Origin: a virus
Taxonomy: Duplodnaviria > Heunggongvirae > Uroviricota > Caudoviricetes
Reading direction: 5' to 3' (one strand)
Length of the DNA stretch: 39,738 bases
Virus record (IMG/VR): IMGVR_UViG_2778261509_000011
Location: 1 to 39,738 of that record
Shown: positions 36,301-39,300 of the stretch, in pieces
How the letters are laid out: each line of letters begins with the position of its first letter
Position numbering within the stretch: position 1 is the stretch's first letter
Position numbers: made by a program

Positions 36301-39300
36301 AGATCTCTTCAGATCGCCACCACTGATAATACAAATAAAATAGATGCTCTGATTGTACGGGACAAGGCAGATTTCGCGCAAAACAGAACGTCAAAGTTTA
36401 AACAAGGCGCGGCTGCATTTGTGAATGGCAATCGATCCACGGTAATTATCGGCGACTCAATAAGCCATGGAGCGTTCGCAGGTAATCTCTATACAAATGG
36501 ATGGACGAGATTACTCGCAAGAGCCATTAATAATGAATACGGAACACAGTCATACGGGTTCATCCCAACTGGCACTCTTGGTAGTGGTAGCACGCTAAGT
36601 AAAGATTTGCACAGCGTCGCTTTTGTTGGCACATGGGTTGGGGTTGAAAATGCGGATGCAGCGAGCTACCCAAATGGATTTGCATTTAGAGGAAACACTA
36701 CATCTCATCGGGTAAGTATCACGATTCCGTCATTTATGAGTAGGGCACTAATACATTATGCGACTCAACCAGGTGGAGCAACAGCCACAGTTGCTGTCAA
36801 TGGAACTGTAGTTACGACAATAAACTCGGCAGGTGCGCTGAACGGGTTTTCAACCGTAGAAGTTCCTTTAACAGATAATGGTACCGGAGAGTCATTGATT
36901 TCTATTCAGTTGACCACGGATGGAAATTTTGACTGGATTGGTAATAGCTATTTTTCGGGTGTTACGGAATCTGTAACTCAAAACTTTAGCCAGTCTGGTA
37001 GGAGATTGTATTATGTAGATCAATCAACAATTAACACCATTTGCCAAAACTCCAACACACTTATAATGGCACTTGGATATAATGATGCTGGAGAGGTTTC
37101 ATCAGAATATCAAACTTTATTCAAACAGCGTATTGACTGGATTATAGCGGCAGCAAATTCAAATGGTGTTCGCGTTGTTGTTCCTGATTTTTGCTGGACA
37201 TACCCTGATACAAATTATGCACGAAAAGAATTAAAAAGGTTGGCGGAAGAAACTAGTGGGATATACATAGATTTCCCGTCATTACTGGTAAAGGATGACG
37301 GGTCACCTGCAGATCCTAATTATCTAAATAATGTATTAAAGCTTTTTGTTGATGGAACACACCCAAACGCTGATGGTAATGCTTTCGTGTTTGAGGTTAT
37401 TTCAAGAAGTATGGGACTGGCAATTAACTCAAAGTCCTCATCATTAAGTCTTTCAGATTTTAATCTTCCAATTAAATTAACAAATCCGCTCATCAAAAAT
37501 GTTATTACTATCGGAAATTCCATATCTTCAGTAAGGAGGGTTCCGGGAGGAGTATTGCTCAAATGCCTGCTTACAATGCCCGGTGGTGCTGAGAGCCTAC
37601 CAACAGGAACGGTCATAATATGTGATGCGTTCCCGGCAAGCTTCGGTGACAGCAAGATCATGCAGAGCACGCAAACCATGATAATCACAGATATTGCAGC
37701 TGATACATTTGTCGGAACAGTGGCGCTGTCAGCTAATGGTCAGCTTGTTGCCACAATAAGAACCAAACCTACGAAAAACCAGCTCAATTTTGTGATTTTT
37801 TCGCCAGCAGCACCAGGGGCTTAATTTTCCTGCAACTTGAGACTTATTTACTATGGGGCAAAAAATTATCGCAAAACGACTCAAAACCTCGGGAGGCGGT
37901 GATTCATCTTGCGCTAATGCTTTTTTGGTAAATAAGACAGAAATGGGACACACAAAGCTTTGCATAGGTTTGCAAGGCTTTGTGATGCTTTCCTATGACA
38001 CCTTCTCATCAAGCCAGTCCGCCCACCACTGCATCATTTCTCTGCGTTTATCGTAGTTGATGCATCACTATCACACTGTAATAGCTTATTACTGGTTTGC
38101 AGACAGGTAGGCATGAACAGATACCTGCGCATGAAGACGGAACTAGTCCAGATGTGATATTTGTGGTGATCACATACATCATCAACGATGCTCGTTATGG
38201 TGAGTTTGATGACTACCCGCTGAAGTGAAAATTGTGTTGTGTACCAAATTGCGTACCAAACTAAAATCACAAATCATGAAACCCTTGTTCATGGCGGTTC
38301 TCAGGGGTGTTTCGCGTAATCGTGAAACAAAAAGGTAGATTGTTGCTTACCGTCATTCATCATTAGGTTAAATCCGTTATTTCTGCTGTCTGCCAGAGTA
38401 TCAAATATCACCGTGCTAATCAGCTTTAGCGCAACAATTTGACAGCGAGTGGCAACAGATCATGTCAGATAAAAATGAGAGAGTAGTCACATTTTCTTGC
38501 ACTTTATTCCAGCCAGTTCATAAGTATTTCCGTAAAAAGAACAGCTATTTGAAACTCCTGAGGGTTTGCTGTTGAAACGCCGTCTTATTATTGCTGCTTC
38601 TTTGTTCGTTTTTAACTTATCGTCTGGTTTTGCGGCGGAAAACATTCCTTTTTCACCTCAGCCTCCACAGATTCATGCCGGGTCCTGGGTACTGATGGAT
38701 TACACCACCGGTCAGATCCTCACCGCGGGTAATGAGCATCAACAGCGCAATCCCGCCAGCCTGACAAAGCTGATGACAGGTTATGTCGTGGATCGCGCTA
38801 TCGATAGTCATCGCATTACGCCAGACGATATTGTCACCGTGGGGCGCGATGCGTGGGCGAAAGATAATCCGGTGTTTGTCGGTTCTTCACTGATGTTTTT
38901 GAAAGAGGGCGATCGCGTATCGGTACGTGATTTAAGCCGTGGTTTAATTGTGGATTCCGGAAATGACGCTTGTGTTGCTCTGGCTGACTATATTGCCGGT
39001 GGGCAACGGCAGTTTGTTGAAATGATGAACAACTATGCCGAGAAGCTGCATCTCAAGGATACGCATTTTGAAACAGTGCATGGTCTGGATGCACCTGGCC
39101 AGCATAGCTCGGCTTATGATTTAGCTGTGCTTTCTCGTGCTATCATCCACGGCGAGCCCGAGTTTTATCATATGTACAGTGAGAAAAGTCTCACCTGGAA
39201 CGGTATCACCCAGCAAAACCGTAACGGGTTGTTGTGGGATAAAACCATGAATGTTGACGGCCTGAAAACGGGTCATACTTCTGGTGCCGGTTTTAACCTC

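Follow-up and report, generated by a model that had tools for sequence, protein, structure and literature searches.

A P22-type tailspike of an Escherichia coli prophage with a predicted SGNH acetyl-esterase as its receptor-binding module

The window analyzed in this study is a stretch of 39,738 nucleotides (nt) from a tailed virus (Caudoviricetes; IMG/VR record IMGVR_UViG_2778261509_000011, positions 1 to 39,738), which forms part of the Escherichia coli contig NLPY01000001.1 (assembly GCA_002231095.1). A tailspike gene at 35842..37824 (+), encoding 660 amino acids (aa) plus a stop codon, is the last phage gene before the right prophage end. Sequence comparison, structure modelling, and analogy with characterized phages suggest that its product is probably a receptor-binding spike in which an SGNH acetyl-esterase takes the place of the sugar-cutting beta-helix and would deacetylate a polysaccharide on the host surface.

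The N-terminal part of the protein is of the P22 type. The head-binding (virion-attachment) domain, aa 1-113 (35842..36180, +), ends with YDPDQ and was matched by Pfam PF09008 (Head_binding) over all 113 profile positions with an E value of 1.3e-66. It was nearly identical to the tailspike N-terminus of PDB entry 7sg7 (E 4e-64), and the head-binding matches in PDB as a whole (7sg7, 2vky, 8tvr, 2xc1, and 1lkt) had E values of 1e-44 to 4e-64. A preliminary description of the window, made from the nucleotide sequence, had assigned the first ~115 residues to the P22-family head-binding domain, and the Pfam match confirmed this assignment. The neck or linker that follows (aa 114-185, 36181..36396, +) opens with the motif LxxxLSSxSGASLIG and continues as a long helix at aa 135-180, which probably forms a trimeric coiled coil. 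The length of this helix varies, with deletions of 10-29 aa in relatives, and a search for relatives of the neck (aa 113-201) returned a single marginal match, to Shigella phage MK-13.

Beyond the neck, two GDSL families of Pfam were detected. Lipase_GDSL_2 spanned aa 375-514 (profile positions 32-177 of 178) with 38.3 bits against a curated cut-off of 32.9, and Lipase_GDSL scored 27.1 bits against a cut-off of 23.6, so that the profile search proposed in the preliminary description gave two families above their gathering thresholds. The SGNH core is divided into two parts. Part 1 (aa 186-257, 36397..36612, +) holds block I and includes a strand at 199-204 followed by the GDS motif and a helix; part 2 (aa 372-540, 36955..37461, +), supported by the Lipase_GDSL_2 match and the PDB profile alignment, holds blocks II, III, and V. 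A CBM35-like beta-sandwich (aa 258-371, 36613..36954, +), probably a carbohydrate-binding module (CBM), is inserted between blocks I and II. The protein ends with a beta domain (aa 541-660, 37462..37821, +; strands at ~563-656) that had no Pfam match and matched no known family. This C-terminal domain, which may serve as a distal binding or trimerization module, occurs in only part of the family, since many relatives cover 60-72% of the query and do not contain it. PHROGs gave the same split, with a tailspike N-terminus followed by phrog_15518 over aa 192-555, a group annotated as of unknown function. No match to the tailspike was found in the defence-system and NCBIfam libraries.

Four SGNH blocks were located in the core. 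Block I (IIGDSISHG, aa 202-210, 36445..36471, +) contains the predicted nucleophile Ser206 with its codon at 36457-36459. Block II (NFSQSG, 36982..36999, +) has the usual N-x-x-x-S-G form, runs from N381 to G386 (N381-x4-G386) inside the Lipase_GDSL_2 match, and provides Gly386 as a predicted oxyanion-hole residue. Block III (LGYNDAG, aa 411-417, 37072..37092, +) follows the strand at 404-410 and provides a second such residue, Asn414. Block V (DGTHPN, aa 504-509, 37351..37368, +) precedes the helix at 510-523 and contains Asp504 and His507, the predicted acid and base of the triad. In the PDB profile search, blocks III and V aligned with known GDSL enzymes, the latter with their DxxHPN. Blocks I, III, and V had been recognized in the preliminary description at these same positions, including the exact serine codon, but block II had been overlooked; the residue that it named Ser205 is the right one, although it becomes Ser206 when Met1 is counted. 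The spacing of ~200 aa between blocks I and III had been read there as an inserted beta-rich domain. The distance from the block I serine to the block III asparagine was 208 aa, and that to the block II glycine was 180 aa, in agreement with a 12-strand domain at ~258-371 located between blocks I and II.

An AlphaFold2 (AF2) model of the monomer was built on a 51-sequence alignment. The mean predicted local distance difference test score (pLDDT) was 83, with values above 90 from approximately residue 190 to 600, which includes core part 1, and of 65-89 in the helix at aa 135-180 and ~70-95 in the C-terminal beta domain. The order of elements in the model was a helix at 135-180, alpha/beta parts at ~186-257 and 372-540 with a 12-strand beta-sandwich (258-371) between them, and a beta domain at ~563-656; the last of these agrees with the C-terminal extension that had been proposed earlier. 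The catalytic blocks occupied the usual SGNH places, with GDS after the first strand, Gly386 and Asn414 in loops that follow strands, and DxxH before a helix, as described for SGNH enzymes (PMC9487903). The fold match and these canonical positions suggest that the catalytic residues cluster in space, and the structure prediction thus favoured the SGNH reading of the preliminary description. Its view that the receptor-binding part is not of the beta-helix glycosidase type also held: no beta-helix was found by Pfam, in the model, which consists of alpha/beta parts and beta-sandwiches, or among the top fold matches, and the tailspike had no match to a glycosidase family.

When the model was compared with PDB by Foldseek, the top matches were the peptidoglycan O-acetylesterases Ape1 8gkd and 4k3u (E 2e-14, TM 0.61-0.65 on the target). 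In a structure comparison, Ape1 4k3u_A scored 21.6 with 294 residues aligned and Ape1 8gld_A scored 20.1, followed by single-domain SGNH esterases at 12-13, isolated CBM35 modules at 11-12, and the phage G7C tailspike gp63.1 (4qnl_A) at 11.3. At the sequence level, phmmer of aa 117-660 against PDB found nothing even at E<=10, and a family profile against PDB gave weak generic GDSL matches only. The same fold was present in BFVD in tail-fibre and minor-tail proteins of Klebsiella, Proteus, Gordonia, Arthrobacter, and Rhodococcus phages.

The names of the two Pfam families, GDSL-like lipase/acylhydrolase, raise the alternative of a lipase, lysophospholipase, or lipid-A deacylase: the SGNH domain would then attack lipids of the outer membrane to aid tail penetration. 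One metagenomic relative is labelled "lysophospholipase L1-like esterase", and Thioesterase I/TesA was among the weak PDB profile matches. However, the top fold matches were carbohydrate O-acetylesterases (Ape1 and the CE2, CE3, CE17, and CE20 families), the inserted domain resembled CBM35, CBM6, and CBM36, and the domain is located at the outer, receptor-binding end of the tailspike, which is distant from the membrane on first contact. We consider a lipid substrate very unlikely.

Conservation of the catalytic residues was assessed in two sets of sequences. In the 51-sequence alignment, where mean column identity was 21%, G204, D205, S206, G386, G412, N414, D415, and H507 were invariant and D504 was conserved in at least 90% of the sequences. 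The second set comprised 197 relatives from two large protein searches, down to 26-30% identity, and the catalytic serine was kept in 191/192, the glycine in 193/196, the asparagine in 195/197, the aspartate in 186/196, and the histidine in 194/196. This near-invariance argues for a retained catalytic function. It bears on another alternative, namely that the SGNH domain is a catalytically dead, lectin-like module or that a defective prophage has left the gene behind as a relic. The activity is a predicted one, and recombinant receptor-binding proteins of prophages are often inactive or not expressed (PMC13123978). Nevertheless, all five catalytic residues are present here and in ~95-99% of the 197 relatives, the open reading frame (ORF) is intact, the protein belongs to a 90% identity cluster of 40 member sequences, and the prophage retains a full gene set from integrase to tailspike; we therefore give this alternative little credence.

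The closest solved relative is Ape1, represented by the enzymes of Neisseria meningitidis (4K3U) and Campylobacter jejuni (8GKD/8GLD). Ape1 is the classic example of a GDSL-2 enzyme whose SGNH domain contains an inserted CBM (PMC9487903). The tailspike has the same two-domain topology, with a CBM-like beta-sandwich inside the SGNH core between blocks I and II, and the same catalytic set of S, G, N, D, and H. The two nevertheless share only 13-14% identity, and no sequence search found Ape1. They also differ in setting: Ape1 acts on O-acetylated MurNAc in the bacterial periplasm, whereas the tailspike is a virion component that bears a head-binding domain, a neck, and an additional C-terminal domain. 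To our knowledge, peptidoglycan is not O-acetylated in E. coli, so that the tailspike probably has a substrate different from that of Ape1, and peptidoglycan is an unlikely one. As a side reading, the phage receptor-binding esterases of this family and Ape1 may share one two-domain ancestor.

Among phage proteins, G7C gp63.1, for which both a crystal structure (PDB 4QNL) and biochemical data exist, had been cited in the preliminary description as a precedent, and it is a valid one as a functional analogy, since gp63.1 deacetylates the O-antigen without cleaving the chain and this activity is essential for infection (PMC10743462, PMC13123978). It is likewise a virion tailspike with an SGNH esterase and not a depolymerase, and its blocks I, II, III, and V were recognizably aligned with those of the tailspike; in hhalign, its NCSVSG aligned with block II (NFSQSG). 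In contrast, the distance from the block I serine to the block II glycine is ~68 aa in gp63.1 and 180 aa in the tailspike, indicating that gp63.1 has no inserted beta-sandwich, and its adaptor domains and virus family (N4-like) also differ. Membership of the gp63.1 family was rejected: BLASTP gave motif-sized matches (E 0.12), hhalign covered blocks II-V only (probability 61%, E 8e-5), and the domain layout was different.

Other phages provide members of the same functional class. Gp41 of the Acinetobacter phage Aristophanes deacetylates the K26 capsule, and its SGNH region was modelled on Ape1 by the authors (PMC8471582); the Shigella phages Moo19 and B2 have esterase tailspikes that depend on O-antigen acetylation (PMC11654681); and SGNH receptor-binding proteins of Klebsiella prophages hydrolyze pNP-acetate (PMC13123978). 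No significant profile match between the tailspike family and gp41 was obtained. An esterase domain on the epsilon15 tailspike is reported in a 2026 preprint. In the open literature we found no paper on a P22-type head-binding domain fused to an SGNH esterase, although databases hold several such fusions.

The tailspikes of P22, Sf6, and HK620 have the same head-binding domain, gene position, and module boundary after YDPDQ. Their receptor-binding parts are right-handed beta-helix endoglycosidases, whereas the tailspike studied here has neither a beta-helix nor a match to a glycosidase family. The Pectobacterium phages PP99 and Possum have further SGNH esterase spikes. Precedents from the P22 family and from coliphages make O-antigen the most likely target. 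The same chemistry could in principle be directed at another acetylated glycan, such as capsule (K antigen), colanic acid, enterobacterial common antigen, or another exopolysaccharide. Nothing in the tailspike sequence fixes the identity of the glycan, and phage SGNH receptor-binding proteins that act on capsule are documented in Aristophanes gp41 (PMC8471582) and the Klebsiella prophage proteins (PMC13123978). The best PHROG for the N-terminal 227 residues was a colanic-acid-degrading tailspike, a match that spans the adaptor and neck only and not the enzyme. On the other side, the characterized P22-family tailspikes (P22, Sf6, and HK620) use O-antigen, and the studied esterase spikes of E. 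coli and Shigella phages (G7C, Moo19, and B2) act on O-antigen (PMC10743462, PMC11654681). A target other than O-antigen is thus a minor possibility, though a more credible one than a lipid substrate or a dead module.

Several points weigh against the interpretation of the tailspike as a polysaccharide deacetylase. Its closest solved relative acts on peptidoglycan and not on O-antigen, and the SGNH fold alone leaves the substrate class unfixed; SGNH domains can also be acyltransferases or lipases. The clustering of the catalytic residues is suggested by the fold match and the block positions. The head-binding domain was poorly modelled (pLDDT <50), since the model was a monomer and the alignment contained few homologues. 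Both the enzyme activity and the acetylated receptor are, moreover, deduced.

If the tailspike is a deacetylase, it could work as follows. The head-binding domain (aa 1-113) would dock the spike onto a P22-type tail, as its homology to solved structures implies, and the helical neck would trimerize the protein. The beta-sandwich and the active-site cleft would bind an O-acetylated surface polysaccharide, most likely O-antigen and otherwise capsule. Ser206 would then attack the acetyl ester with His507 as base and Asp504 as acid, and the oxyanion hole would be formed by the backbone amides of Ser206 and Gly386 together with the side chain of Asn414. Acetate would be freed and the glycan backbone left intact. 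By analogy with G7C gp63.1, Aristophanes gp41, Moo19, and B2, deacetylation would be both the receptor-destroying and the releasing step, and it may make binding reversible and let the virion descend to the outer membrane. Modification of the receptor would be required for productive adsorption, and infection would then depend on O-acetylation of the host (PMC10743462, PMC8471582, PMC11654681). That a P22-type virion reaches the outer membrane through an uncut O-antigen layer by deacetylation alone is a proposition on which we are evenly divided.

The position of the module boundary was examined by comparing the gene with 5,426 complete E. coli genomes by megablast. Matches were obtained in 1,142 records, and these covered only the first 338-364 nt (approximately residues 113-121). 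Relatives with other adaptors could be aligned from residue 114, at LxxxLSSxSGASLIG. The junction at aa 113/114 after YDPDQ is therefore an ordinary boundary, and the suggestion in the preliminary description of an "unusual" junction near aa 115-120 was not supported. A second, softer boundary was observed near residue 181. Beyond it, the epsilon15-like homologue had 72% DNA identity and 75-97% protein identity per 40-residue block; the neck before residue 181 was weakly similar to this homologue and variable in length. The receptor-binding part had 42% GC and 34% GC at third codon positions (GC3), compared with 52% GC3 in the coat gene, values that fit a foreign origin. The esterase module was probably gained by the usual exchange of cassettes downstream of the head-binding domain.

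A sensitive blastn search gave no match to the receptor-binding part in the 5,426 complete E. coli genomes. When it was compared by tblastn with 50,697 phage records at E<=1e-5, the only matches were Vibrio phage Valp1 (44%), Pseudomonas phage UFJF_PfDIW6 (34%, annotated as tail spike), and Vibrio phage 209E38-1 (30%); G7C, Aristophanes, Moo19, B2, and the Klebsiella prophage proteins were not among the matches. Valp1 (OR500391.1) is a temperate myovirus with two paralogues (P0009 and P0015), one of 661 aa with a PF12571 N-terminus and a shorter one of 427 aa. The exact tailspike protein was present on two contigs, and the named members listed for its 90% identity cluster were tailspike proteins encoded in draft E. 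coli assemblies. When 1.84 billion representatives were searched exhaustively with HMMER, 290 clusters were recovered at E<=1e-3 and 125 clusters at E<=1e-30.

Of the 197 relatives, 150 were extended at the N-terminus by 100 aa or more, and the esterase module was found fused to Tail_spike_N (PF18668), PF12571, and three further, diverged P22 head-binding domains. A P22-type head-binding domain occurred in four proteins (P0001, P0222, P0014, and P0200), and P0014 lies in a P22-like gene set on a metagenome contig. The spikes of epsilon15-like E. coli prophages (P0003, P0006, and P0007) share the esterase module at 71-78% aa identity from aa 114 to the C-terminus, with 72% nucleotide identity from gene nt 543 onward, and come from the same host species; by sequence, these are the nearest true members of the family. 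They differ from the tailspike in having a Tail_spike_N (PF18668) adaptor and a shorter neck. These proteins are uncharacterized and are named "hypothetical" or "SGNH/GDSL hydrolase family protein". Among the three, the locus of P0006 was inspected. It encodes a spike of 761 aa (L004 10001-12286, E. coli DBIFRL020000004.1; 76% aa and 72% nt identity) in an epsilon15-like podovirus prophage beside ppk/ppx, and the spike gene is followed by holin, GH19 lysin, and spanin genes. The occurrence of the same module in this spike indicates that the cassette is common to two unrelated types of E. coli podovirus prophage.

The start of the tailspike gene was chosen between two in-frame ATG codons. The mechanical ORF (35794..37824, +) encodes 676 aa and begins with an ATG 16 codons upstream of 35842. 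This upstream start is probably unused and was rejected, since the ATG at 35842 agrees with the P22-family N-terminus (MSDIT) and has a GGAG 8 nt before it. The same product of 660 aa is given by the public gene call (WP_249539582.1, "phage tailspike protein [Escherichia coli]").

The window from 1 to ~38,300 is a P22-like prophage, with the integrase gene just left of the window, adjoining sbcB, and dacD at the right. The prophage sits between sbcB and dacD in the E. coli chromosome and is apparently complete. Among its early-left genes are N, cIII, kil, a Rad52-like recombinase, and single-stranded DNA-binding protein (SSB). The late genes upstream of the tailspike gene encode P22 coat, gp4, gp10, gp7, gp20-like, and gp16-like proteins and are followed by the gene of a Mnt-like repressor; the P22 gp16-like injection protein (PF26808) and the repressor precede the gene and place it in the tailspike position. 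The repressor gene, of the Arc/Mnt ribbon-helix-helix type (35460-35753, -; Pfam Arc and Repressor_Mnt), is directly upstream of and divergent from the tailspike gene. No arc or antirepressor gene was seen beside it, and immI therefore appears reduced.

A candidate att core, the 13-bp exact repeat CGTAATCGTGAAA, was found 3' of the tailspike gene at 38315-38327 of the window and again at 13094-13106 of L007, approximately 33 nt inside the 5' end of sbcB and by the integrase gene, where ~0.006 matches would be expected by chance. If it is the core, the prophage would end on the right near 38327, and its insertion site would be the sbcB/dacD divergent region. The interval from the tailspike stop codon to the candidate attR (37825-38315) consists of ~490 bp of AT-rich DNA (41% GC) and contains two small ORFs, 37853-38056 (+) and 38034-38270 (-), with no Pfam or PHROG match. 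Genes for lysogenic conversion (gtr and oac) occupy this position 3' of the tailspike gene in some P22-like phages; none was found between the tailspike gene and the candidate attR. The early-left region and the stretch from the tailspike gene to the prophage end were screened, and neither contained a recognizable gene for O-antigen modification or for an acetyltransferase. A literature search for the assembly found nothing. The left flank was read through int, sbcB, and hisG, and the O-antigen (rfb) cluster of the host lies ~20 kb past the left prophage end on the same contig.

Two further observations concern the prophage and its surroundings. Between the N-like gene and cIII/kil, a typical place for exclusion or moron genes, lie 5728-6729 (-; phrog_1376/21365) and 6887-7336 (-; phrog_3054), conserved phage genes of unassigned function whose products had no Pfam or PADLOC match. 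Near the prophage, downstream of dacD, sbmC, yeeA, and yeeX, the host carries a microcompartment operon (L001 16347-21983) encoding PduV/EutP-family, BMC-shell, RnfC-like, Fe-ADH, aldehyde dehydrogenase, and Cob adenosyltransferase proteins. We take this to be the pdu operon, which is presumably found in only some E. coli lineages.

The mechanism proposed here is not new, since esterase tailspikes have been demonstrated by experiment in several groups of phages and reportedly are common in Klebsiella prophages. The tailspike adds that the P22 tail machine joins the adaptors able to carry an SGNH deacetylase, and that the same cassette serves P22-like and epsilon15-like E. coli prophages. Its annotation can be improved, as the public name is only "phage tailspike protein" and its PHROG carries no function. 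P22 is the best-developed system for lipopolysaccharide-triggered DNA ejection in vitro, and a P22-type phage with a deacetylase would therefore offer a direct test of the deacetylation-motor hypothesis. According to this hypothesis, processive deacetylation, in place of chain cleavage, could be the "motor" by which a short-tailed phage is drawn to the membrane (PMC10743462). The predicted receptor, an O-acetylated surface polysaccharide, would be useful for predicting host range and for serotype-specific detection reagents. If the prediction is true, sensitivity of the host would hinge on a single O-acetyl epitope, and loss or phase variation of the host O-acetyltransferase would then give resistance.

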